The translations under genes and the position numbers were made by a program. Source: Candidatus Tayloriibacteriota bacterium (GTDB lineage: Bacteria > Patescibacteriota > Minisyncoccia > Phycocordibacterales > JACOZD01). From it: DNA of 43,037 nt. Numbering within the stretch: position 1 is the first letter of the stretch; every line of letters begins with the position of its first letter. Below are positions 790 through 30,299 of the stretch, piece after piece. The stretch is from NCBI GenBank assembly GCA_016181525.1, contig JACOZD010000002.1, positions 1 through 43,037 of the forward strand, given 5' to 3'. A model generated the notes under the pieces. The model saw nothing but the letters and a program-made list of their open reading frames with translations. It had not been told where the DNA came from and did not search any database.

Positions 790-817
790 TTGACAACAGA
801 ATATTGACAACAGAATA
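790..817 (+). repeat. tandem 14 bp direct repeat TTGACAACAGAATA x2
   Basis: Exact copies at 790-803 and 804-817 in the leader of the Cas7-like gene. Confidence 0.8.
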
Positions 818-863
818 CAGGTAATAACGCCTTGAGCATGGCCTGAAAAAGCTCTGTTCTAAA

Positions 864-1571
864 GTGTGGAAAGGTAAGTTAGCTATGAAGATACGTGCGC
901 TACTCGTGGGGGTTGCCCCGCTTCTCATCAATCGAATGACACCGGACACGCTCGAAGGTCTCCGGACCAAGGTCCATAAGCCAAAAGCCAAGGATCTCTC
1001 GCCGAAGCAGGAAGCGATTGGCAAGATCTATCGGAAGGACGGCGACAAAGGGCCAATGGGCATTCCGACCTTGAATCTGCTTGCCGCTATCAAAGCGGCA
1101 GGACGGTTCCATAAGTTCGATGGCAAGAAAGCGGTCTCGACCGCCGAGGGCACCTTGCTCTATTCGTTCCTCTCGATTGAGGATGAGTTCCTGCCGTTCG
1201 CGAATAATAATACCAAGGGAGAAATCCAGTGGGAAGCCGACATGCGTCGGGGAACCTGCATGGACATCGCCGTTTGCATTGTTCGGCCGAAGTTCAAAAA
1301 TTGGTCGCTCGACGTCACCTTCCAGGTTGACGGGAAGCAGGTCAAAGAAGGTCTCATCCGTCAACTCGTGGATACCGCTGGCTCCAAGGCCGGCCTCTGC
1401 GACTTCCGTCCGAACAAGGGCGGACCCTTCGGCCGTTTTGCGGTCGAGAAGTGGGAAGTGACGATGGAAGAATCGGACAAGCAGGGCGGGTATTCGGAAG
1501 AAGTCGAAGAGTCAGAGCCATCTGGTAATGGTCCGAATCGTCTCGAGAAACTTGAGACGGCGCGAGCGTAA
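864..1571 (+). CDS. Cas7/RAMP-like RNA-binding protein (likely start ATG 885)
   Basis: RAMP-like motif order: N-terminal strand LxGxxPLL, IPxxNLxAAIxxA, RPxFxxW strand, helix ending in AG, and C-terminal Gly-rich loop GLCDFRPNKGGPFGRFAV; acidic tail; directly followed by a structured array. Confidence 0.75.
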   Translation: MWKGKLAMKIRALLVGVAPLLINRMTPDTLEGLRTKVHKPKAKDLSPKQEAIGKIYRKDGDKGPMGIPTLNLLAAIKAAGRFHKFDGKKAVSTAEGTLLYSFLSIEDEFLPFANNNTKGEIQWEADMRRGTCMDIAVCIVRPKFKNWSLDVTFQVDGKQVKEGLIRQLVDTAGSKAGLCDFRPNKGGPFGRFAVEKWEVTMEESDKQGGYSEEVEESEPSGNGPNRLEKLETARA

Positions 1572-1572
1572 G

Positions 1573-2273
1573 TATTTACTTGCGGTGTCTGCGTGTCTTG
1601 TGCTAGTCTACGGTAAGATGCGGTTCTCTACTGATGCCGCGGAGTGAAAAATCTCCGCGGCAAGATTTCCGTTTTGTTCTTTGTCGCCAGGTCCTGTTCG
1701 CTCGAGTTAAGTTGGTTTCTGCTCGTTACGGCACGGTAACCTTCAGTACGGCCCCCGCCCCTTTTTTGAAAAAGGGGCGGGGGAGAATTTCAAAATCTGT
1801 TTTTTTATTCCGGTTGAGTAACCCGTTCTCCGCTGGACCGGAGCACGGTGAAGTTCATTCCACTAATGGGCGAGAGAGTTTAACTCTCTCGCCAGAATTT
1901 CCGGTTCGGTTTGTTCGGCCAAACTATCCTGCGGTTCTCTGGCCTGCACTAAACAAATCCGAACTACGCGGCTGGCATTCTCTTGAATGCCAGCCATTTG
2001 ATTTTTTGTCATAAAAGTTTTTTAAGTTATCTCTCGCGGTAAGGTGCGTTTTTGTTCTCTTTCCCAGAGTTTGGTTTTCCATCCTACAGTCTTCTTTTTC
2101 TACAGGGCACAAGGTGAGAAACTTTGTGCGATTTACTTTTTATGTTTTTAATGTAAGGTAAGACTGGATCAGGCGTACCAACGTGTGCTTGAGTGTGCTC
2201 CACTCCTCTGCGGCCGACTCAGGTTGGGTATTGTAGGGATTCTCTATGGGGCGAGGAATGAAAATTCCTCGCC
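1573..2273 (+). ncRNA. array 1: six putative guide-like RNA units with 5-nt periodicity, each ending in a hairpin
   Basis: Units at about 1573-1662, 1663-1783, 1784-1893, 1894-1995, 1996-2129, 2130-2273. Hairpins at 1635-1662, 1752-1783, 1869-1893, 1970-1995, 2107-2129, 2250-2273. A pyrimidine falls at every 5th base of the unit body (e.g. 1672,1677...1752 all Y). RNA status is inferred. Confidence 0.8.
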
Positions 2274-2283
2274 ATTTTTGTAT

Positions 2284-2312
2284 TTGACAGTTTGTGATAC
2301 TCATGCTAGTAT
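2284..2312 (+). promoter_or_regulatory. sigma70-type promoter for the small ORF-DinG-array 2 unit
   Basis: TTGACA (2284-2289), 17 bp spacer, TGc-TAGTAT (2307-2312). Confidence 0.65.
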
Positions 2313-2423
2313 CTCAACCAGAAATAGCTCCATAGCTATAGCTATAATCTAGGTGAGTAATCTAGGTTTTTTGACAACACTGAATAATCAAAACACAGAC
2401 AACAAAGAGAAAGGAAATTCCTT

Positions 2424-2747
2424 ATGGGTAAGCATTATGTTGTAACTAGCTCGAGAATACGCCGAAAATCAAAAAAAGAGAAACGTCCTCCGAGCGTAAA
2501 CAAATACGCCCGTTTCGTACCTTCTCGGTCTTCTTTCTACCACTGGTTTGATAAAACTTTTCGCGACCTGCCAATTATTGGTGATCGCGGAGAAGTTCTC
2601 AAGGCGGGCTATCGTGTAACCTTTCATGGACGATTATATGCCCTTATGAAGGATACATCAATTCCGCAGACAGCACCCTCCATTCCGGGCACAGCAAACA
2701 AGTATCAAGGCGTCGGGCGATTCAAGTTGGTTGCCCGCCTTGATTGA
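2424..2747 (+). CDS. small basic hypothetical protein upstream of DinG
   Basis: 107 aa, AAAGGA RBS, K/R-rich N-terminus, abuts the helicase gene. Confidence 0.65.
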   Translation: MGKHYVVTSSRIRRKSKKEKRPPSVNKYARFVPSRSSFYHWFDKTFRDLPIIGDRGEVLKAGYRVTFHGRLYALMKDTSIPQTAPSIPGTANKYQGVGRFKLVARLD

Positions 2748-4585
2748 AAAAGAAAGGAAACATGCAACATCTGGAACATCTAAAATTATCTCTTTTAGAA
2801 GAGACGTTCCCCACAAGCGCTCTTCGTCGAGCGCCGTGGGCAAGTCAGCGGGAAATGTTTCGCATCATTTCCGAGAATGGCTCGGTCACGATCGAATCTC
2901 CGACAGGAAGCGGAAAAACCGCAGTCGAGTATACGGTCCTCAAAGCCGCAGACTTGAAACGGAAACAACCGCTTTTTCTCATCACTCCGAATAAAACATT
3001 GGTGGAGCAAATCCGCCAAGAGTTTCCGGATCTCAAAATCGCTCTTGGGCGAAACGAGCATCCATGTTTCTACTATCAGGACAAGTTGCCAGCTGATAAA
3101 CAGCCAATGGCAGACGAAATTCCATGCTCGCTTCTTAAAGACTGCCCTCATCGGGTGGACCAAGAGACAGGCAAAACTTTCGTAGAGGGAGCGATCCCAT
3201 GTCCGTATTTGAAGCAAAAGTTTGAGGCGAAGCAGGGCGGCATCGTTCTCTCCACCATAGCTTTCTATCTCTTCACTCAGCTTTTTAGCAAGGAGTGGGA
3301 GCAACCAGAAGTACTTGTCATTGACGAAGCACATAGGATGGCTGAAGTGGTGAGAAATGCACTCTCGTACGAAATCACTGATTGGCATTTACGAAAGTCG
3401 GTGGAACTTCTGCGAGAAATTGGTGCGGAGGAAGCAGAGTTGCTTCACGACTTCTACAAGAAGTTGGTTCATATAATCAAGTCAAAACCTGCGCATGAAC
3501 GAACCATGCTGAATGCCCGAGAAATTAGAGCGCTCATGGAAAAGCTTGAGGTCATAGATCAATCAGGACTCTTGCGCAAGCTTGAAAAGGCGGTGCGGGA
3601 GAAAGTGATTGATGTTGTCGAGAAACGGGAGACTCTGAAGAAGCTTGAAGTAGTGGTGAAGGATCTTCGCCGCTATCTACGCTCATTCGAGTATTCGCTA
3701 CCTGACGAAAATCGGCACGCGCTCAACTACACCTATGCCTTCTACAAAGACAAAGAGGAGAAAGGAGAGAAAGAGCATGTGCAGTATCGACTGGTGGTTA
3801 AATGCTACTATGTCGCACCCATCATCAAAAAAATTATGGGCAAGACAACGGTGGCTCTCTCGGCGACAATCGGAGATGATGAAGTGTTTGGCCATGAGAC
3901 GGGAATACGGAATCCATGTTTCAGTTTGGAATCCAATTTTCCGTCCGATAATGCTCGACTCTTTATGCCGACCGATACTCTCAATCTCGCGAAAAACGAG
4001 CGTGGTAATCGCGATTTACCAAAGAGTATCAGGATGGTGGCTCGGGCTTGCAAACGGTTGAGAGATAAAGGACACCGAAGTCTTTTCGTCACTATCTCTA
4101 ACCTTGAACGTGATAAGTTCATGATGATGGCAGAGGAGGAAGGTCTAAAGGCCATAAGTTACGGCAACGGCGTAACTGCAAAGGAAGCGGCTATCCGTTT
4201 CCGTGACGGCGAGGGTGATGTTCTCTGCGGCACGGCTTCAAACTATGCCGAAGGGGTGGATTTGCCAAAACAGATCGCACCAGTCATATTCTTTCTCCGA
4301 CCCGGGTATCCCAATCCTAAGGATCCGGGAACACAGTTTGAAGAAGAACGCTTCGGCGGCAGTCGGTGGGCGCTGTGGAATTGGCGGGTGATGATCCAGG
4401 CACTTCAAGTCCGCGGTCGGAACATTCGTTCTACCAAGGATCTGGGGGTGACGATATTCATATCACAGCAATTCCGGCGGTTCGTTCACGCATCACTTCC
4501 CAAATGGCTCGAGAAAGCATATGTCAATGACCGTACGTTTGACGAGTGTATTTCCCAAACGGAGGAGTTGTTAGGGGAAAAATAG
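2744..4585 (+). CDS. DinG/XPD-family SF2 helicase (likely start ATG 2762)
   Basis: Walker A ESPTGSGKT, VIDEAH, LSAT, AEGVDLP, QVRGRNIR; four Cys (HPC, IPC, DCPH, PCPY) consistent with an Fe-S site; AAAGGA RBS before ATG 2762. Confidence 0.9.
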   Translation: MKKKGNMQHLEHLKLSLLEETFPTSALRRAPWASQREMFRIISENGSVTIESPTGSGKTAVEYTVLKAADLKRKQPLFLITPNKTLVEQIRQEFPDLKIALGRNEHPCFYYQDKLPADKQPMADEIPCSLLKDCPHRVDQETGKTFVEGAIPCPYLKQKFEAKQGGIVLSTIAFYLFTQLFSKEWEQPEVLVIDEAHRMAEVVRNALSYEITDWHLRKSVELLREIGAEEAELLHDFYKKLVHIIKSKPAHERTMLNAREIRALMEKLEVIDQSGLLRKLEKAVREKVIDVVEKRETLKKLEVVVKDLRRYLRSFEYSLPDENRHALNYTYAFYKDKEEKGEKEHVQYRLVVKCYYVAPIIKKIMGKTTVALSATIGDDEVFGHETGIRNPCFSLESNFPSDNARLFMPTDTLNLAKNERGNRDLPKSIRMVARACKRLRDKGHRSLFVTISNLERDKFMMMAEEEGLKAISYGNGVTAKEAAIRFRDGEGDVLCGTASNYAEGVDLPKQIAPVIFFLRPGYPNPKDPGTQFEEERFGGSRWALWNWRVMIQALQVRGRNIRSTKDLGVTIFISQQFRRFVHASLPKWLEKAYVNDRTFDECISQTEELLGEK

Positions 4586-5261
4586 TTTCAGCTGCCCTTC
4601 GGCATTCTTGCGTGAAGTCGCGTAGTCCGAGCTCGCGTGCGCTTGTCTGCCGTTCAGTGCAGTTCGCTAAAGTACGGGCTGAGCATTTTCGAAAGAAAAT
4701 GCTCAGCTAAAATTTCCGGTGCAGTATAAGTCGCGCATCCTGCGCTGCTGTCCGGTGAAGTCCGCTAGCCATATGCTAGTGTGTCGTTCGGTGCCGAGTA
4801 ACATTTCGATGTCACTCGGCTAGAATTTCTGAAGTACACCAGTCTATGTTGCGGCGTTTTGTAGTTTGCTTGGCTAGACTGTCGTGCACTGCAGTAGCAG
4901 TACGGGCATAGCACCACGCTGTGGTGCTAGGCAAAAATTTCCCGTGTGGTAACGTAACCTTCCGTATGCTGTGTTAAGGTGCTACATGGTACACTCCGGA
5001 GCCAAGCTTTTGATTTAAAGGCTTGGCTATAATTTACTTCTGCTCCGTGTGCCTTGCTAGTCTCGGCCCCGGTCAGGTGGAGGTGTTGTCCAGTGCGATG
5101 CAGTTCGCCAGACTACGGCCTCGCCCTTTCGCGGAGAAAGGGCGAGGGAAATTTCTCTTGTTCTTTCAGTTCGGTTCGTTGCTCTGTGGTATAGTGGCCT
5201 GTGCTATGTTATACCAAGCTTGTCTACGGACGCGCGTATCAGAAATGGTACGCGCTTTTTT
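4586..5261 (+). ncRNA. array 2: six putative guide-like RNA units with 5-nt periodicity, each ending in a hairpin
   Basis: Units at 4586-4707, 4708-4820, 4821-4932, 4933-5028, 5029-5147, 5148-5255. Hairpins at 4678-4707 (GAAA loop), 4793-4820 (TTCG loop), 4906-4932, 5000-5028, 5119-5147, 5232-5255 followed by T6. Y at 4593,4598...4673 (17/17). RNA status is inferred. Confidence 0.8.
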
Positions 5262-5402
5262 CTTTGTCTGAAAAGGAGCCCCGCCACATCCTTTCTCCTC
5301 CCTTGTGGCGTGGCATATGTGCGCGGTGGGTAGGAAGGCAAGCACATACAAGAATGAGTCCTCGGACATTAAACAGGGCTTTTTTGTTTATTTTGAGTGA
5401 GC

Positions 5403-5506: not shown

Positions 5507-6292
5507 ATGAGATATTTTTCTGCTCGTCGGCGAATACAAGAGGAGCTTCAATACCTCCTTAAGTTTCTGACCGAGTACTTCGGAACAGAAATTCAGACAG
5601 TCGTTGTCTACGGAAGTTTCCTTAGGTGGTCATTCCGTAAATACAACGATGTGGATGTAGCAATCATTTTGCGTGATTCTCCAGAGTGGCGATGGAGCAG
5701 TTCAGAGTCCTTCTGGGATGCGCGAGATGATTCGCCATATCGTCAGAATTTCTTCCAAAAGCTCGAGCAGTTTCTCAAGGAGTTGGGTGCTTCTCGTCCT
5801 TACGACATCAAGGTCTTTACTACGCGTGACCTTGTATTGTTGGCAGAGTTCCAGGAACGCGTAGTCCACACCAGGGGGAACCTGGCACCGAGTATCAGAG
5901 CTGGGAAAGTCATTTTCCAGCGAAAGGAGAACGACATGGCGGAAATGAAGAAGAAACACAGGAGCTTCGTGGAGTTCCTGGACCGAGAGCTCCCGGCTCT
6001 CGGCATGACACACTGGTACAGAAGCAACGACGACTACGGTATCGGGATCGACTACCACGACATCGGCAAAGTCGTGACGGTGGAGCATCGCTTCCTGTTC
6101 ATCACTTGGACATCGAAGCGCACCATCACCATCGCGAGTGTGATTGCCGAGCCGGACACGCCGATTCATGGCGGAGCAGAGGATACTCTCCGGCTTCGCG
6201 TGAAGGTTCGTGAGGCAATACCGACGCTTCAGAGATTGGCCGAGAAGTTCGAAGATGCGACCTTCGGACTCAAAGCCGAGCTCATGTACTGA
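5507..6292 (+). CDS. minimal nucleotidyltransferase (Pol beta superfamily) domain plus unknown C-terminal region
   Basis: VVYGSF...NDVDVAIIL motif, later YDIKV and IRAGKVIF; in-frame internal RBS plus ATG at 5936. Confidence 0.75.
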   Translation: MRYFSARRRIQEELQYLLKFLTEYFGTEIQTVVVYGSFLRWSFRKYNDVDVAIILRDSPEWRWSSSESFWDARDDSPYRQNFFQKLEQFLKELGASRPYDIKVFTTRDLVLLAEFQERVVHTRGNLAPSIRAGKVIFQRKENDMAEMKKKHRSFVEFLDRELPALGMTHWYRSNDDYGIGIDYHDIGKVVTVEHRFLFITWTSKRTITIASVIAEPDTPIHGGAEDTLRLRVKVREAIPTLQRLAEKFEDATFGLKAELMY

Positions 6293-6312
6293 ACACGTCT
6301 CGCCTGTTAGTC

Positions 6313-6348
6313 AGAGGGAGTTTGCGAAAGCAGTTCCCTCTTTTTTTT
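6313..6348 (+). terminator. intrinsic terminator
   Basis: GAGGGAG-TTTGC GAAA GCAG-TTCCCTC stem followed by T8. Confidence 0.75.
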
Positions 6349-6638
6349 AGTTTCAAAGAGCAAGGAATTTGCCGCCAAGACTGAAATTCGTTAGAATTTC
6401 AATAATCCGAATCCGCCACATCCTTCGCTAAGGCTACGGAGTGCAAGGCAAAGAAAAACTTGAAATTATCTGATTCAAAATTGCGATTCAGATTTTCCAA
6501 TCAATTTTTCAGAGTTTTGGCCACCGCCGCCGAGGGCGGCGAAATGGGTTCGGACTATTTTCAGGAGACACAGCTGGTTTATAGCTCATTAATTAAGTTC
6601 TATTCAAGTATTTTGCAAAATACTAGAGTAGGATACAA

Positions 6639-6947
6639 TTGATGGCGTTAGGACTAAGCTCTGACCTTATTAAGATGGCAGTCAATTTTCGAAAATTGGA
6701 GAGAATTATCAAAGGTTTCGCCAATCACCGCCGCCTGGAAATACTTAATTTGCTTTTACATGAGCCAGAGCTCTCTGTTAGTGAAATATCTGAAAAGACC
6801 AGGACAGAGTATATGAACGCCTCTGACCATATTCGGAGGTTAGCTATTTCTGGTCTTCTTCTCAAACGTAATGATGGTAATATGGTGCGGCACAAATTAA
6901 CCCCTCTTGCCGAATCTATTCTAGAATTTTGCAAAAAACTAGAATAA
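6639..6947 (+). CDS. ArsR/SmtB-family transcriptional regulator (start may be ATG 6675)
   Basis: ANHRRLEILNLL...LSVSEISE...ASDHIRRL...GLL winged-helix pattern. Confidence 0.85.
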   Translation: MMALGLSSDLIKMAVNFRKLERIIKGFANHRRLEILNLLLHEPELSVSEISEKTRTEYMNASDHIRRLAISGLLLKRNDGNMVRHKLTPLAESILEFCKKLE

Positions 6948-6953
6948 AATCCA

Positions 6954-7118
6954 GTGAAAGAAATTCTAAAAAATAACAAAAAATTCTATCAGTGCCAGGA
7001 GTGCGGCTTGGTTTACGCCGACAAAGAAACTGCCGAGAAATGCCAAGCGTGGTGCATCGAACACAGAAGCTGCAACTTAGAGATTATCAAACACGCTGAA
7101 AAAAACTTTAACTTCTGA
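6954..7118 (+). CDS. small Cys-rich putative metal-binding protein (54 aa, not in ORF track)
   Basis: GTG start; YQCQECGLVY...AEKCQAWCIEHRSCNLEII. Confidence 0.7.
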   Translation: MKEILKNNKKFYQCQECGLVYADKETAEKCQAWCIEHRSCNLEIIKHAEKNFNF

Positions 7119-7158: not shown

Positions 7159-9462
7159 ATGCTCCATGAAATAAAGAGGAACAGTAAGAGATGCTATTTG
7201 GGCAATATCACTGTGCTCGCGGTCCTTTTATCTATTTTATTTTTAGTCGAGGCGTTGTTTCCTTTGTCATACGCTGGTTCAGAGGAAGGATTTAGAAGAA
7301 AGATTTCAGACCATAAAATCCATAATTACTTTGCCGAGGTCTGGAAGATAAGGAAAGAGATTGCTGAGGGGGGAGATGAAGAAGATAAATACAGGATATC
7401 GAAACGTCGAAGTTTGATGAAGGAACTTATGAAGCACGACCCCTCTCTTTTTTTCCTCCTCGCCGAAAGCGGAAGAAACAAAGCGAATTTTGAACGGAAA
7501 GAGCTTATAAAAGGGCTCGTCGAAATTGTTCATCATGATGAGATAAATTTCTCCAAACTTCGCGATGAATATTTTTTGCACACTAAAAGCAAGAGATTCA
7601 AACTTTATCCAGTATCTGATTTCAGACCAGAGGCGGGTTCGGAGATTTCTTTCCTCGGCTATACCGTCGGAGATAATATAGTCTTCAACCCGGCAGAGGG
7701 TATATCAGTGTTATCGGGCGAGAGGAACGAAGCTTTGGGGGAACAGAGAACACTGGTCATTCTTTTGAATCCCGAGACCGAGAGCGCCGAGCCGTTTACC
7801 GAAGAAGAAGCTCACAATATTGTTTTCGGAAGCACTGTCAGTAAATTCATGACTGAACAATCATATGGGGCTGTCTCTTTTACTGGTGACGTTTTGCCTT
7901 GGACGACCTTTCCTGCCAGAGGGAGTTGTACACTTCTCACTTCAGCCGAGCTCGAGGGAGTGATAGATTCATATAATATTGATTTGAGCGGTTATGACAG
8001 AATAATAAATTTGGTGCACATACCCACTCTGAATTTCTTAGGAGGATGCTCCACGATCGGCAAGAGCGAGTATGTTATAGGAGGAACAAGTTATCGTCTT
8101 TCACAAGCCTCGGTATCAACTTATGGATTTGATATTCCGGCCCGGTTTCTTGAATTTTTCCGCTGGACTCTCTTAGACGGCGCTTTAGCCCATGAACTGG
8201 GACACTCTCTCGGTCTCCACCACGCAAACGGCTGGGATTGCGGCGGCAGCTCGCTTGGCGCTGTCTGCGCGCGTGAGGAGTACGGCAATCTCTTTGACGT
8301 AATGGGGCAAGCTCTTTACTCCAGCCACACTAACGCTTTTTACAAACAACTACTGGGTTGGCTGCCTCCTTCGCGCATTCTGTCGGTTACCGAGTCAGGC
8401 CGCTTTGCCTTGCAGCCATTCGAGCGCTCCGACGGCGTTGCGGCCGCACGGATTAAGCTGGCGGGCAGTGATGCTTACCCTTACTACCTCGAGTTCAGAC
8501 AAAACCAGGGTTTTGACGTCGGTCTTGGGCGAAGTCATCTTGTCTCCAATCTACAAGGTCTAATGGTAAACCGAATTTTGGATATCTCCCGATTGGGCTG
8601 GAGTGTGCCGGCTCTCATCGATGCGCGCCCTACTTCTCTCACTTGGGCTTCTGATTTATTCGAAGTCACTCTTAATGCCGGTCAAAGTCTTATCGATGAA
8701 CGCTTGGGTATCGAGATCGAGACCGTGAGTTCCACTCTAGAGATTCTGATATTTGAAACCAAAATTTCTCCGCCGCCCTGTGAGCGCACCCCCCCGACCC
8801 TTTTCATACTGGAAGGCAGCGCTACTCCTGTAATTGCCTCTGGTGGCGCGGGTTACGTCACTCTTATTTTAAAGAATGATGACTATTTTGGATGCGGCCC
8901 TGCAGCAATAACAGTCACGCCTGCCCCTGGTTCTGCCGGGTGGGTATGGGAGGAGACTCGAAATCAAACTGTCAACTTGCTTCCGGAGGGGGCGCAAACG
9001 GCCTACCTAGGTTTTGGTTTAGATATTCCTCCTGATACTCCGCCCGGGTCTTACAATCTCGCTTTTGAAGCGCGGAACGAGGTCAGTGGATTGCAGTCAG
9101 AACTCATTCTACCCATAGAGATAGTCTCACCCCCGCATATTTCCGAAGTCCTGCCTCATATTGGCCCGGCTGGAACTGGGGTGATTATCAAGGGTAGCGG
9201 CTTTGATTCGCAGTCCACATTCGTGGATATGTGGAAAGTCAACTTTGGTTATCTTAGCGACTACTTGGAAGGAATCGATATCTCGGCTACTGAAGAGGGT
9301 ATTGAGTTTACTGTGCCCGAAGTGATTAATGTCTGCGCCGAAATCTGTGAAATCATCTCTCTCCCTCTGGGCAGGTACGAAATAATTATTACAGCCAACG
9401 GTGCCAGTGCCAAGGGGGATTTTATTGTCGTGCCGCCTGCGCCAGTAAAGTCCAAAAAGTGA
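7159..9462 (+). CDS. secreted/surface zinc metallopeptidase (M11-like) with C-terminal Ig-like domains
   Basis: N-terminal TM segment, HELGHSLGLHH zinc motif, EYGNLFDVMG Met-turn, IPT/TIG-like C-terminus. Confidence 0.8.
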   Translation: MLHEIKRNSKRCYLGNITVLAVLLSILFLVEALFPLSYAGSEEGFRRKISDHKIHNYFAEVWKIRKEIAEGGDEEDKYRISKRRSLMKELMKHDPSLFFLLAESGRNKANFERKELIKGLVEIVHHDEINFSKLRDEYFLHTKSKRFKLYPVSDFRPEAGSEISFLGYTVGDNIVFNPAEGISVLSGERNEALGEQRTLVILLNPETESAEPFTEEEAHNIVFGSTVSKFMTEQSYGAVSFTGDVLPWTTFPARGSCTLLTSAELEGVIDSYNIDLSGYDRIINLVHIPTLNFLGGCSTIGKSEYVIGGTSYRLSQASVSTYGFDIPARFLEFFRWTLLDGALAHELGHSLGLHHANGWDCGGSSLGAVCAREEYGNLFDVMGQALYSSHTNAFYKQLLGWLPPSRILSVTESGRFALQPFERSDGVAAARIKLAGSDAYPYYLEFRQNQGFDVGLGRSHLVSNLQGLMVNRILDISRLGWSVPALIDARPTSLTWASDLFEVTLNAGQSLIDERLGIEIETVSSTLEILIFETKISPPPCERTPPTLFILEGSATPVIASGGAGYVTLILKNDDYFGCGPAAITVTPAPGSAGWVWEETRNQTVNLLPEGAQTAYLGFGLDIPPDTPPGSYNLAFEARNEVSGLQSELILPIEIVSPPHISEVLPHIGPAGTGVIIKGSGFDSQSTFVDMWKVNFGYLSDYLEGIDISATEEGIEFTVPEVINVCAEICEIISLPLGRYEIIITANGASAKGDFIVVPPAPVKSKK

Positions 9463-9469
9463 ACCAAGA

Positions 9470-10318
9470 ATGTTAAGAATCGGAGCGCATCAGTCGATTG
9501 CCGGAGGGTACGCTAAAGCAGTGGAGAGAGTTCACGCTATCGGGGGCAACTGTCTCCAGATTTTCTCCGCCTCGCCCCGAAGTTGGAGCCGGCCCGCTCC
9601 GGACGCCGAAGACAAGAAAAATTTTTTGAAGTTGAGAGAGGAATTTGACGTTCATCCTGTCTACTTCCACGCTTCTTATCTCATCAACCTGGCCGATGGC
9701 GGAGAAGTCGGCCGGAGGTCAGTCGGGGCGCTCATCGCCGAACTTAAAGCGGCCGGGGACTGCGATATTGTCGGCAGCATCATCCATCTCGGCTCGTTTA
9801 AAAACGCTGACAGCGCCGCCGTGGCAGAAAACCGGTACTCGATTTTAATCGCCAATATAAAAGAGATTTTAGATAACACCCCTAAGCGCACCTTTTTTAT
9901 CATCGAGAATTCGGCCACCCGTAAAATCGGCCGGCGGCTGGAGGAGATAGCTAATATCATAAATTGGCTTGGCAGCGATAGAGTAAGGGTTTGTCTCGAC
10001 ACCTGCCACCTCCACGCCGCCGGCTACGACCTCTCCAGCCGGAGGAGAATGGAAGATTTTCTTAAGGACTTTGACTCTCAAATCGGTTTGTCACAACTCC
10101 AGGTTTGGCACGCCAACGACAGCCGCGACGCCTTCGGGTCGCTGCGCGACCGGCACGAGAACATTGGTGAAGGCAAGGTGGCCAAGGCCATTTTCTCTCT
10201 TCTTCTCCAGGAAGCCGAGACGAAGTATCTGCCTTTTATTATCGAGACGCCGGGTTTTGACGGCCAAGGGCCGGATGCCGAGAATATCGCTAGACTGCGC
10301 TCGCTGGAAGTCGGTTAG
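9470..10318 (+). CDS. nfo: endonuclease IV
   Basis: GAHQSIAGG, HASYLINLA, CLDTCHLHAAGYD, DRHENIGEG, IIETP. Confidence 0.95.
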   Translation: MLRIGAHQSIAGGYAKAVERVHAIGGNCLQIFSASPRSWSRPAPDAEDKKNFLKLREEFDVHPVYFHASYLINLADGGEVGRRSVGALIAELKAAGDCDIVGSIIHLGSFKNADSAAVAENRYSILIANIKEILDNTPKRTFFIIENSATRKIGRRLEEIANIINWLGSDRVRVCLDTCHLHAAGYDLSSRRRMEDFLKDFDSQIGLSQLQVWHANDSRDAFGSLRDRHENIGEGKVAKAIFSLLLQEAETKYLPFIIETPGFDGQGPDAENIARLRSLEVG

Positions 10319-10376
10319 AATGAGCTGTGTATAACCTTATGCTCCGAAACGTCTCTTGTTGATATAATTTTGCTGT

Positions 10377-12104
10377 ATGCTCACTCCCAATGAACAAGAG
10401 TATCTTGTAAAAATCCAGTCCTATAATCCCGGCATCGGAGACGCCGATATCCGGCTGGTACTTCGCTCAAGCGGCTGGAACGCCGAGAAGATAGAAGAAG
10501 GGGTAAAGTATCTTCGGGGCGGCCCTCCTCCGCCTTGGCCCAAGGAGACCTCTCTGCCGTCACCGGCCGTGAGCCCGCCGCCCCGGCAAGGGGGCGATCT
10601 CATCCCGCAGCCGGTTAAACCCGGACTGACTCCGCTCATTCAGTCAAAGGCGCCTCTGCCGCCGAAACCGGTCGCACTCTCTCCAGCTCTGCGCGGAACG
10701 CCCGGTGTTCGAGGCGTAGCTTTGGCCATGGCGGCATTGCTTGTTTTAATTTTAGCCGCCAGTGGTTTGTCATTTTTCCTCGGCCTGCCGCCGCTTGGAA
10801 CTCTCGGCAAGCCCGCTTCGCCGAGTAATTTTCTGACCACTATCTCAAAGGCCTTAACCGGGTCCGGGAGCTTGTCCCGAACCATAGTTCTGGAGTTTAA
10901 AGAAGAGCCGAGGGAGAACGGGGTCAAATCTTCCGGTTCGAGCGCCGTCAATGACTTTTTAAAGAGCATCTCTCCGGGTTCTTTCGCTCGGTCCCGGCTT
11001 GAGGCCAGCTACGCCGGCCGGGACTTCAAGGTCGAACTTGACGCCAGCGCCCGGGTTGGCCTCGCTGTCTTTGAGTCGGTCGGGGCCGTCGTTATCAAAG
11101 CGGGCAAAATTTATCTTAGAGTTGATAAACTTTATCCGAGTGCCTTAGCCACCTCGACCATCCTCGGTCAGTGGGTCTCACTCATGCCCGAGGAGTTGCC
11201 CCTCCTGGCCCGGCCCGAGGCCACCACCACTGCCGCCGGAGCGGGCCCGCTCCGGCTCGACGAGCGGGTCTACCTTGAATACCTTGAAACCGCTCTGCCC
11301 CTGGCCGACCGCCACCGGGTGATTAAAATCTCGCGGGTTAGGCGCGATGACATCTCCGGCCTAAAGGCCTATCGTTACGACATCAGGGTCAGTCTGCCGA
11401 ATTTAATCTCGTTTTATAAAGAGTATACCGAGGTAATGAGAGAGAGGTATGGAGCATCCGTCATTTCTCCCAATACCGGTTTGATTGAGTTTCTTGAGAA
11501 TGAAGATTCAGCCGAGGTTTTCGACTTTTGGAAAAGGAACAGCGCCGCCTCGGTGTGGCTCGACGAGAGAGGATTGCCCGTTTCCTCTCTTCTCACCTTG
11601 CGCTTGGTGCCTCCGGACGAGGTGACTACCCTCTCCGGCAGACAGTTTAAGTTGACCGTCTCGGCAGACGTCTCGCCCGGGTTGGCGGTTATCCAGGCCC
11701 CGGAGAGGTTTCTCTCGATCGAGGAGGCTCGGAGAATTCTCTTTGAACCGCCGCCCTCGCCTTCGTCCCTCAAGCCGCCGCCTCCGCCGGCCGCAAGAAA
11801 ACCGACTTCTGCCGTAACCGAAGTCAAGGCCGTTTTTGAAAAAATTCGCGCGGCTAACAGGACTCAAAATGCGGACGAGATGGATAAACATCTCACCGCC
11901 CGCTCGGTAGCCCTGCTCGCGGCCGGAGGCGAGAGAATCTGGTTTAAGGACTTTGTTTGGGTCTCCGGTCGGGTTTCAGGCTCGAGAGTGGTGACGGAGA
12001 TACGCATCATTGACCTGGCGGCCGGGGCCAGCACCTTGAGTGTCCCGTTTTTGCGTCAAGGCGGAGTCTGGAAAATGGGTTTAGCCGAAAGTCTGGAGCT
12101 TTAA
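10377..12104 (+). CDS. membrane-anchored hypothetical protein with Pro-rich linkers
   Basis: 575 aa, single TM segment, N-terminal LRSSGW motif. Confidence 0.8.
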   Translation: MLTPNEQEYLVKIQSYNPGIGDADIRLVLRSSGWNAEKIEEGVKYLRGGPPPPWPKETSLPSPAVSPPPRQGGDLIPQPVKPGLTPLIQSKAPLPPKPVALSPALRGTPGVRGVALAMAALLVLILAASGLSFFLGLPPLGTLGKPASPSNFLTTISKALTGSGSLSRTIVLEFKEEPRENGVKSSGSSAVNDFLKSISPGSFARSRLEASYAGRDFKVELDASARVGLAVFESVGAVVIKAGKIYLRVDKLYPSALATSTILGQWVSLMPEELPLLARPEATTTAAGAGPLRLDERVYLEYLETALPLADRHRVIKISRVRRDDISGLKAYRYDIRVSLPNLISFYKEYTEVMRERYGASVISPNTGLIEFLENEDSAEVFDFWKRNSAASVWLDERGLPVSSLLTLRLVPPDEVTTLSGRQFKLTVSADVSPGLAVIQAPERFLSIEEARRILFEPPPSPSSLKPPPPPAARKPTSAVTEVKAVFEKIRAANRTQNADEMDKHLTARSVALLAAGGERIWFKDFVWVSGRVSGSRVVTEIRIIDLAAGASTLSVPFLRQGGVWKMGLAESLEL

Positions 12105-12107
12105 TCT

Positions 12108-12143
12108 TGGTAAAATAAGCTGCGATCGCAGCTTATTTTACCA
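12108..12143. terminator. perfect inverted repeat (terminator or REP-like)
   Basis: TGGTAAAATAAGCTGCGATCGCAGCTTATTTTACCA right after the stop codon. Confidence 0.6.
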
Positions 12144-22763: not shown

Positions 22764-22863
22764 TGTTCAACACTCGGTGTTGCACATCTCTCGGTGTTGC
22801 ACATCTCCCGACTGCCTACCGCTATGTGCAACACCGAGTGTTGCACACGGGCACGGTGTTGCA
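22764..22863. repeat. cluster of TGTGCAACAC-CGA-GTGTTGCACA palindromes
   Basis: Copies at 22764-22786 (inverted) and 22825-22847 plus partial copies; also at 23792-23814 and 30163-30183. Confidence 0.85.
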
Positions 22864-23791: not shown

Positions 23792-23814
23792 TGTGCAACA
23801 CCGAGTGTTGCACA
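23792..23814. repeat. TGTGCAACACCGAGTGTTGCACA palindrome
   Basis: Identical to 22825-22847. Confidence 0.85.
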
Positions 23815-30019: not shown

Positions 30020-30299
30020 AAAGCGGCCTTTTTTGTGTCATTATTTCATAAAGACTCTGAAAATTTTCCGCCAAAGAAAAACTTACTTGCCCGTCCGCAG
30101 GTCGCCTAAGGCGACCGAAGGAGGGAATCGTCCTTTCCGCTCCGGTTCCCGCCAGACACCGATGTGCAACACCGAGTGTTGCATCTGTGATTTTGTTATC
30201 GCCACCCCTTGACATATTAGCTTAATTATCATAGGATAAGTGGCAATCTGAACATGGTGTTCAGAAGCAACCAAATAGTTCCTTGAAAGGAGAAAAGCA

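Follow-up and report, generated by a model that had tools for sequence, protein, structure and literature searches.

A probable chromosomal VIPR system with two arrays of five-base-patterned units and a DinG/XPD-type helicase in a Patescibacteria bacterium

The DNA analyzed here (hereafter the window) is a stretch of 43,037 nt from contig JACOZD010000002.1 (GCA_016181525.1) of Candidatus Tayloriibacteriota bacterium, whose assembly amounts to 492 kb and is 81.65% complete. At positions 4586-5261, directly behind a helicase gene, it holds a non-coding array of units that are written in a five-base pattern and closed by hairpins (array 2). A related array (array 1) stands behind the gene of a 235-aa protein on the same strand. 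We consider it very probable (about 0.85) that positions 864-5262, with both genes and both arrays, form a chromosomal VIPR system of a Patescibacteria (Candidate Phyla Radiation, CPR) bacterium, and that array 2 is one of its two arrays of vrRNAs, the guide RNAs of such systems. The whole system is compact, with two or three proteins and 12 units in approximately 4.4 kb. Systems of this kind have been in print since April 2026, and the locus adds variant features to what was described.

In the bioRxiv preprints cited here, VIPR (Viral Interference Programmable Repeat) systems are described as consisting of a minimal RAMP protein (Vipr), vrRNAs in which 9-16 YNNGG pentads precede a structured tail, and one accessory gene (vap); most of them occur in phages and prophages and some in chromosomes, and the reference type II systems are those of Escherichia phage SUSP1 and of a Pseudomonas fulva prophage (10.64898/2026.04.26.720920). 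The same report showed by experiment that the pentad RNAs are programmable guides, whose NN bases pair with double-stranded DNA while one target base is skipped per pentad, and that binding represses transcription. It distinguished seven types, of which types III-V carry nucleases or helicases, and mentioned arrays interspersed with hammerheads as well as the alternative repeats NNNGG, YNNNG, and NNNNG. One protomer was found per pentad in a helical filament with a triplex R-loop (10.64898/2026.04.26.720927), and the non-canonical motifs WGT/NN and TGH/NN were added later (10.64898/2026.10.21.760802). The words "DinG" and "Patescibacteria" are absent from the main texts, figures and supplements aside, of 10.64898/2026.04.26.720920 and 10.64898/2026.10.21.760802. 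Literature searches on Cas7, DinG, and CPR returned nothing relevant, and no paper was found that joins a 5-nt periodicity to Cas7.

An earlier note on this DNA, made from the letters alone, had written the units of 4586-5261 as triplets alternating with dinucleotides (NST/NN), and its reading of the letters was confirmed as written. For the first unit of array 2 (Unit 7, or U7), the parse holds from position 4591, and the 13-bp GAAA hairpin reported behind it proved to be perfect, with arms at 4678-4690 and 4695-4707. The repeated step can be expressed as a pentad, Y-N-N-N-S, which is the same pattern in another phase (the triplet N-S-Y, then NN), and the dinucleotides correspond to pentad positions 2-3, the code positions of the published VIPR systems. 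In array 2, self-identity reached 0.35 at lag 5 and 0.30 at lag 10, compared to approximately 0.24 at other lags, and no such peak was observed in the flanking genes. When the phase was held fixed, a T was found on 16 of the 18 steps of U7 and on 11 of the 13 steps of U10, values reached by none of 2000 shuffles in either case. U9 (12/18, p 0.0035), U12 (12/17, p 0.02), and U11 (10/18, p 0.047) also exceeded their shuffles, so that five of the six units of array 2 passed this test at p < 0.05.

Runs of at least five YNNNS pentads covered 47.3% of the + strand and 4.4% of the - strand of array 2, and 36.7% and 4.2%, respectively, of array 1, in line with the claim that the two arrays have a common grammar. 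Elsewhere, the coverage was low: the two genes next to the arrays had 0-4.1%, and the remaining 37 kb had 2.3%. Among 175 in-register pentads from the 12 units, position 1 was T (83%) or C (14%) and position 5 was G (43%) or C (38%), whereas positions 2-4 were variable, with G at 39% in position 4. The final pentad before the hairpin was often canonical, as in TACGG or TATGG. The five-base period exceeds chance, and no further array of this kind was found in the 492-kb assembly. Other explanations of the pentads had been entertained: a long self-paired body was rejected since the pentad pattern is not self-complementary, and a TRAP-like ring-binding RNA and a DNA-curvature pattern were early ideas that were dropped.

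Array 2 consists of six head-to-tail units on the + strand over 4586-5255, closed by a T-run, and the unit borders were set by the hairpin positions. Its bodies measure 67-92 nt, or approximately 13-18 pentads. All 12 units of the locus end in a hairpin of 9-14 bp, and no two units have the same one; the hairpins of array 2 are perfect or nearly so and are present in the minimum-energy structures of their units. In four of the six units of array 2, the sequence AATTTC (AAUUUC in RNA) comes just after the hairpin (at 4711, 4824, 4936, and 5150 on the + strand); U10 has the variant AATTTAC and U12 the T-run of a terminator. Related tails carry compensatory changes: an A-U pair of U6 is replaced by G-C in tails of the related locus L002, and a U-A pair is exchanged for C-G between the tails T2_4 and T2_9. 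At the Rfam gathering level, the window contained only 4 tRNAs, with nothing in the arrays, and no type III hammerhead.

The earlier note had described the units as entirely different from each other, and this was borne out by all-vs-all alignment. The best local score between any two of the 12 bodies was 15.5, while pentad-shuffled sequences, used as the null, had a 99th percentile of 14.5 and a maximum of 17. Among the 22 most similar pairs of tails (the lowest of which was 73% identical), none joins two tails of the window.

Could the locus be an ordinary cluster of intergenic terminators or palindromes like repetitive extragenic palindromic (REP) elements, in which the five-base pattern arose by chance? 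A consensus scan classified four of the 12 hairpins (U4, U5, U6, and U12) as terminator-like, the site of U12 being on the + strand, and related hairpins end the arrays of the loci L001 and L002; the region holds five terminator-like sites, which is no excess over shuffles (mean 5.2). However, the T-run is absent from most hairpins, and the period is limited to the arrays and specific to one strand. The pattern is found again behind homologues of the 235-aa protein with identities down to 36%, and no other such array exists in the assembly. We thus regard this explanation as extremely improbable.

The 235-aa protein encoded in front of array 1 had no match in Pfam, NCBIfam, or PADLOC. Its AlphaFold2 model (mean pLDDT 85.3, pTM 0.78) was compared with PDB structures by Foldseek, which placed type VII Cas7 and Csm3 first (best E 4.7e-07, with 97 chains at E ≤ 0.001); the Cas7/Csm3 chains matched with a probability of 1.00 and a TM of about 0.45-0.57. 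Against BFVD, the model matched viral RAMP-like proteins (best E 9.6e-11, TM 0.62/0.70). At the sequence level, the profile phrog_4652 matches the protein over its full length (E 5.7e-18), and the nearest ESM Atlas clusters are 82-100% viral. With a profile built from 21 homologues, 6,459 cluster representatives were recovered at E ≤ 0.001, of which 2,177 reached E ≤ 1e-10 and 376 reached E ≤ 1e-30. The conserved motifs are DMRRG, located at a beta-hairpin, VRPKF, and FRPNKGGPFGRF, which lies in a G-rich loop. Judged by its predicted structure, the protein is a minimal RAMP with the Cas7 fold, as expected of a Vipr protein. Vipr proteins are characterized as small RAMPs that have one RRM, a G-rich loop, and a thumb and are homologous to those of phages.

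The link to VIPR was tested on phages. A tblastn search with the 235-aa protein found remote homologues in 8 phage records, two of which were inspected for YNNGG context. In Pseudomonas phage LESphi2, strict YNNGG runs make up 30.9% of the spacer upstream of the homologue, including 11 consecutive pentads, and in Gordonia phage Pipp they make up 47.8% of the 272 bases downstream of the homologue. Since these homologues stand beside textbook YNNGG tracts, the locus was filed as VIPR and 4586-5261 as a vrRNA array. In the LESphi2 record, three YNNGG tracts, the last of which holds the 11 consecutive pentads, lie at 4582-4881, upstream of the unannotated Vipr-like gene P21_9 and by the cI/cro region of the prophage. 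In the Pipp record, gene 43 (5590-5859), annotated as "hypothetical protein", follows the Vipr-like gene 42 and overlaps YNNGG runs at 5598-5798, so that a vrRNA array has probably been mistaken for a protein gene. In two further relatives, on viral contigs (L014 and L015), the pentad runs were short, and no helicase was present at a distance of up to 6 kb.

The gene in front of array 2 encodes a helicase with the Pfam domains Helicase_C_2, DEAD, and DEAD_2, whose PDB sequence matches included archaeal XPD chains (E 9.5e-10) and no CasDinG chain. Four cysteines lie between its first helicase motifs, at the place where the XPD/DinG family carries an iron-sulfur cluster. Its best profile, over the full length, was PADLOC PDLC01439, "typeIV_DinG, CAS-IV-A associated" (E 3.7e-43). 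The Csf4 models proper matched weakly (27 bits for TIGR03117 cas_csf4, with a cut-off of 400; E 0.0093 for Csf4_0_IVA). In a tblastn search of the phage collection, the helicase had no match at E ≤ 1e-10. The 107-aa open reading frame (ORF) in front of it had no family match in Pfam, NCBIfam, PADLOC, or PHROG-type profile searches, and L002 alone had a homologue of it, with 55% identity over 83 residues.

To place the module, we compared 11 related genome loci (L001-L011) that carry homologues of the 235-aa protein at 36-83% identity. Seven of them are labeled as Patescibacteria-group, three only as "bacterium", and one as Gammaproteobacteria. The helicase adjoins the vipr homologue in nine of the 11, with arrays between and behind the genes; none was seen in L001, which is a short contig, or within reach in L011. 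The helicase travels with the RAMP gene, and this adjacency, together with the Cas7 fold, supports the earlier proposal that the grammar ties the helicase to a Cas7-like gene. No other conserved neighbor was found in these loci, which are flanked by differing housekeeping genes. Of 301 genomes sampled from the order, 11 encode the 235-aa protein (10 of 190 genera). This patchy occurrence and the differing housekeeping neighbors are the pattern of a self-contained, mobile module.

The non-coding stretch behind every homologue is built from units of a variable body and a hairpin, and in most of the related loci the autocorrelation of T peaks at lag 5 or 10. In each of the 12 array regions measured in L001-L011 (L009 aside), YNNNS runs made up 22-56% of the + strand, compared to 0-25% of the - strand. 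In L008, 8 matches resembling type III hammerheads lie between the units of both arrays (2474-3827 and 5890-6529), all on the + strand; their E values range from 1.4e-05 to 0.51, all below the Rfam gathering score, but the CUGAUGA and GAAA cores are complete. In L003, a tRNA gene (70 bits) at 7005-7079 lies inside a vrRNA-like array, which suggests that RNAs may be released there by tRNA-processing enzymes. The hammerhead-like elements and this tRNA point to processing into single RNAs. Some related loci had further peculiarities. L002 carries a MazF/PemK-like ORF (7862-8173) between array 1 and the helicase operon, which is absent from the window, and L009 holds two Vipr-like genes within a few kb (6001-6570 and 9864-10382), the second of which is 27% identical to the window protein. 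Two Vipr-like matches on one contig were also observed in the genome G237 (contig C6).

A Cas7 fold next to a DinG-type helicase also recalls type IV CRISPR-Cas, and the locus might be a decayed or minimal system of that type, with a Csf2-like Cas7, a Csf4-like DinG, and an array whose repeats drifted into unrelated hairpins. The fold of the 235-aa protein and the full-length match of the helicase to the PADLOC typeIV_DinG profile (E 3.7e-43) are in agreement with this idea, and the order of a hairpin followed by AAUUUC resembles what we take to be the layout of a Cas6-type repeat with an 8-nt 5' handle. However, the array has no direct repeat, no two window tails being paired among the 22 most similar tail pairs, and the five-base grammar of the bodies is impossible for captured spacers. 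No Cas1 was found in the 81.65%-complete assembly, and the ORFs of 864-4585 had no match to Cas5, Cas6, Cas8/Csf1, or Csf3 profiles in Pfam, NCBIfam, or PADLOC. The weak scores of the Csf4 models proper and the lack of a CasDinG chain among the PDB sequence matches of the helicase point the same way. A derivation of this kind is therefore very improbable. What the locus has in common with type IV-A (Csf2 and Csf4) is the general layout of a RAMP filament (here a presumed one) on a guide RNA and a DinG-family helicase, with no nuclease in the module; in both, interference would be expected to act by binding and not by cutting. It differs in having no CRISPR repeats, no equivalents of Cas5, Cas6, or Cas8, no adaptation genes, and only weak matches to the Csf4 models proper, and in a five-base register (six-base in type IV-A) with putative germline-encoded guides.

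How the repertoire of units evolves was analyzed by comparison with L002, the closest long relative locus (93% protein identity for the helicase and 83% for the RAMP, approximately 80% at the DNA level). The earlier note had held that units invariant across relatives would speak against guides; instead, only four of the 12 window units had a body in L002 that scored above the null maximum (U9, 34; U11, 28; U7, 21; U5, 19). By local alignment, U9 corresponds to T2_7 and U11 to T2_9, and the kept bodies hold stretches of up to 21 identical bases. Tails behaved differently from bodies. There were 16 unit pairs whose tails were at least 77% identical, and in all of them the body scores stayed at or below 16.5, inside the range of the null. 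Between L001 and L002, whose vipr genes are 79% identical at the DNA level, two of four syntenic units had kept their bodies (scores of 56.5 and 53) and two had not (10.5 and 8.5). From near-identical tails with null-level bodies and from the replacement of half of the syntenic bodies, it follows that tails last and are passed on as copies, and that the bodies before them are swapped or rewritten. Tail duplication with body replacement partly answers the question, raised in the earlier note, of how new units arise, although it names no mechanism. Together with the published VIPR guides, the turnover of bodies next to persistent tails is in agreement with the diversified guide repertoire that had been proposed.

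In six orthologous unit pairs, 18 of the 144 sites in positions 2-3 had changed, as against 52 of the 215 sites in the other three positions (Fisher p 0.0065), a comparison that comes from a small sample in which one pair includes promoter sequence and the registers were set by a tracker that rewards T. Position 4 was the most variable in these pairs (32%). Such strong conservation of positions 2-3 would be expected from the published code, provided that orthologous guides retain the same target. The earlier note had suggested following unit changes in metagenomic reads. Four DNA runs of one groundwater study contain the locus as contigs, and their arrays are nearly identical; the only variants in array 2 were an inserted C behind 4591, 4626 T>C at pentad position 4, and 4659 G>A at position 2, which is too little to speak for or against diversification. 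Among RNA runs, none was found to cover 800-5300. In the DNA data, three of the four runs carry, beside the form of the window, a second haplotype of the helicase 3' end (4462-4621), with seven linked substitutions at 4492-4546.

Several observations weigh against the VIPR assignment. First, the arrays do not conform to the canonical motif: among 202 tracked pentads, strict YNNGG accounted for 38 and YNNNG for 90, and tandem pentads of at least four units, one of the marks of a VIPR array, were present for the related consensus YNNNS (157/202) and not for canonical YNNGG; the register tracker rewards T, so these tracked counts flatter the pattern, while the fixed-phase and regular-expression figures are free of this bias. 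No strict YNNGG run of at least three pentads occurs in the window, and such runs are absent from the helicase-linked loci except for 1.0% of L010. In array 2, U8 failed the fixed-phase test (7/17, p 0.77) and fits only with two register shifts; in array 1, U1 and U5 failed the same test (p 0.28 and 0.40). The tails vary, unlike the invariant tails of the described SUSP1 clade. The 235-aa protein was matched to Vipr via its phage homologues, at the level of VIPR as a whole and not of one of its seven types. Finally, no target was found under seven gapped rules (0-3 bases skipped after NN, or 0-2 after NNN) in the organism's own 492-kb assembly and the related loci, a search space that did not include phages of the host; apart from trivial self-matches, real scores were at most 1-2 positions above those of pentad-shuffled controls. 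The 12 bodies had no contiguous match in the genome, where the best ungapped full-length identity of approximately 50-60% was taken to be chance level, and a blastn search of 50,697 phage records with the two arrays was negative at E ≤ 0.1. Phages of the host would be the expected targets.

The lack of a target under any rule is also what would be seen if the units were not guides at all and served only as scaffolds, decoys, or sponges by which the RAMP filament is assembled or titrated, their variable bases drifting neutrally. The scaffold bases and the hairpin are indeed the only constraints common to all units, and decoy-directing vrRNAs have been reported in phage satellites (10.64898/2026.10.15.759431). 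Neutral drift is, however, the opposite of what was observed at positions 2-3, the most conserved of the orthologous units, and it is hard to reconcile with 21 identical bases in a row kept between genomes whose genes are approximately 80% identical. Moreover, a single unit would suffice as a scaffold, and yet the locus maintains twelve distinct ones, and homologous systems were shown to be programmable guides (10.64898/2026.04.26.720920). We consider non-guide units very improbable, and a putative guide function of 4586-5261 is supported by homology and by the sequence pattern.

Further marks by which VIPR loci are recognized were found. All 12 units end in a structured 3' tail, although the tail sequence is not invariant, and the locus is minimal, with a single small RAMP gene, one accessory DNA-related gene, and no CRISPR array or cas operon. 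It also resembles VIPR systems in its predicted pentad vrRNAs of approximately 100 nt with two hypervariable bases and a structured 3' cap, in its arrays on both sides of protein genes, and in its patchy distribution, like that of a mobile element. It differs from the reference systems in several respects: the scaffold is Y-N-N-N-S instead of Y-N-N-G-G; the bodies of array 2 have approximately 13-18 pentads, compared to the 9-16 reported; each tail is a simple hairpin of its own instead of an invariant tail with a pseudoknot; the accessory gene encodes a DinG/XPD-type helicase instead of the DNA-binding vap1; and the host is a groundwater CPR chromosome instead of a phage. VIPR types III-V and the non-canonical pentads, as described, fit the window locus, L004 and L006 (YNNNG), and L008 (hammerheads). 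TIGR-Tas, with its tandem interspaced guide RNA arrays (PMC12045711), provides another comparison. It too is a non-CRISPR system of array-encoded guide RNAs in phages and parasitic bacteria, but its effector has a Nop domain and is not a RAMP, its array period is 18 nt, and its guides are contiguous.

If the locus works like the published VIPR systems, array 2 and the helicase gene would share a transcript, and the array part would be cleaved into individual vrRNAs, on which one Vipr protomer per pentad would assemble into a helical filament. The protein would hold the scaffold bases, here N-S-Y instead of G-G-Y, and the two NN bases of each pentad would pair with the double-stranded DNA of a competing phage or mobile element, every third target base being skipped, so that binding would silence the target. 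By analogy with type IV-A CRISPR-Cas, the helicase may then load at the resulting R-loop and extend or enforce interference.

The features of the locus are listed in Table 1. A promoter-like site (2284-2312) precedes the 107-aa ORF and the helicase gene, and the consensus scan found no promoter-like site of equal quality on the + strand between it and array 2; array 2 is thus probably cotranscribed with the helicase.

Table 1. Features of the predicted VIPR locus in the window (positions on contig JACOZD010000002.1). U: unit.
Feature	Position	Strand	Remarks
vipr-like gene	864..1571	+	235-aa minimal RAMP, Cas7 fold (predicted)
Array 1, vrRNA-like units U1-U6	1572..2273	+	begins right after the vipr stop codon; hairpins located
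Promoter-like site (TTGACA, 17 nt, TAGTAT, with TG)	2284..2312	+	10/12 consensus positions; consensus match only
Small basic ORF, 107 aa	2424..2747	+	overlaps helicase start; no family match
DinG/XPD-type superfamily 2 (SF2) helicase, 613 aa, presumed accessory (vap) gene	2744..4585	+	Pfam, PDB, and PADLOC matches
Array 2, vrRNA-like units U7-U12	4586..5262	+	directly after the helicase stop codon; terminator at end
U7	4586..4707	+	body 4586-4677 (18 pentads from 4588), 13-bp hairpin 4678-4707
U8	4708..4819	+	body 4708-4793, hairpin 4794-4819
U9	4820..4932	+	body 4820-4905, hairpin 4906-4932
U10	4933..5028	+	body 4933-4999, hairpin 5000-5028
U11	5029..5147	+	body 5029-5118, hairpin 5119-5147
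U12	5148..5262	+	body 5148-5231, hairpin 5232-5255, T-run; terminator of the operon

Other elements were observed around the locus. Upstream of the vipr gene, a 15-bp inverted repeat lies just before it (735-769), and a 14-mer containing TTGACA is duplicated in tandem at approximately 791-818; both may be regulatory. Downstream of array 2, a nucleotidyltransferase (5507-6292; Polbeta/NTP_transf_2, PADLOC candidate PDC-S09) and a winged-helix regulator (6639-6947) may form another defence or toxin-antitoxin module. Farther away in the window, a palindrome of approximately 21-23 nt with a 9-10 bp stem is present in three copies outside the VIPR locus (22825-22847, 23792-23814, and 30164-30184). 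A long AT-rich palindrome at 12108-12143, with a 16-19 bp stem around a GCGATCGC core, is REP-like or terminator-like and recurs on at least four contigs (also the genome contigs C13, C24, and C27).

A broader proposal can be put forward only tentatively, and we consider it rather improbable. The helicase-linked CPR clade could be a distinct VIPR branch, whose protein reads a relaxed Y-N-N-N-S scaffold in which position 4 is free and whose guides each have a tail hairpin of their own, and in which bodies are exchanged as cassettes between conserved tails without Cas1; its DinG-type partner could make this branch the nearest living counterpart of the type IV Csf2-DinG core, or else a donor or recipient of it.

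VIPR entered the literature as late as 2026, with work on phage systems of E. coli and Pseudomonas, and its grammar proved to be recoverable from raw sequence alone. In the present locus, an ultra-small groundwater bacterium appears to have the same logic built into its chromosome, with 12 predicted guides and a DinG/XPD-type helicase. The relatives add that conservation in orthologous guides falls on the two code bases and that scaffold position 4 is free in this clade, and the duplication of tails with replacement of bodies narrows the question of how guides diversify without an adaptation module. The locus would thus offer a compact natural example for asking what a helicase adds to interference that acts by binding only.

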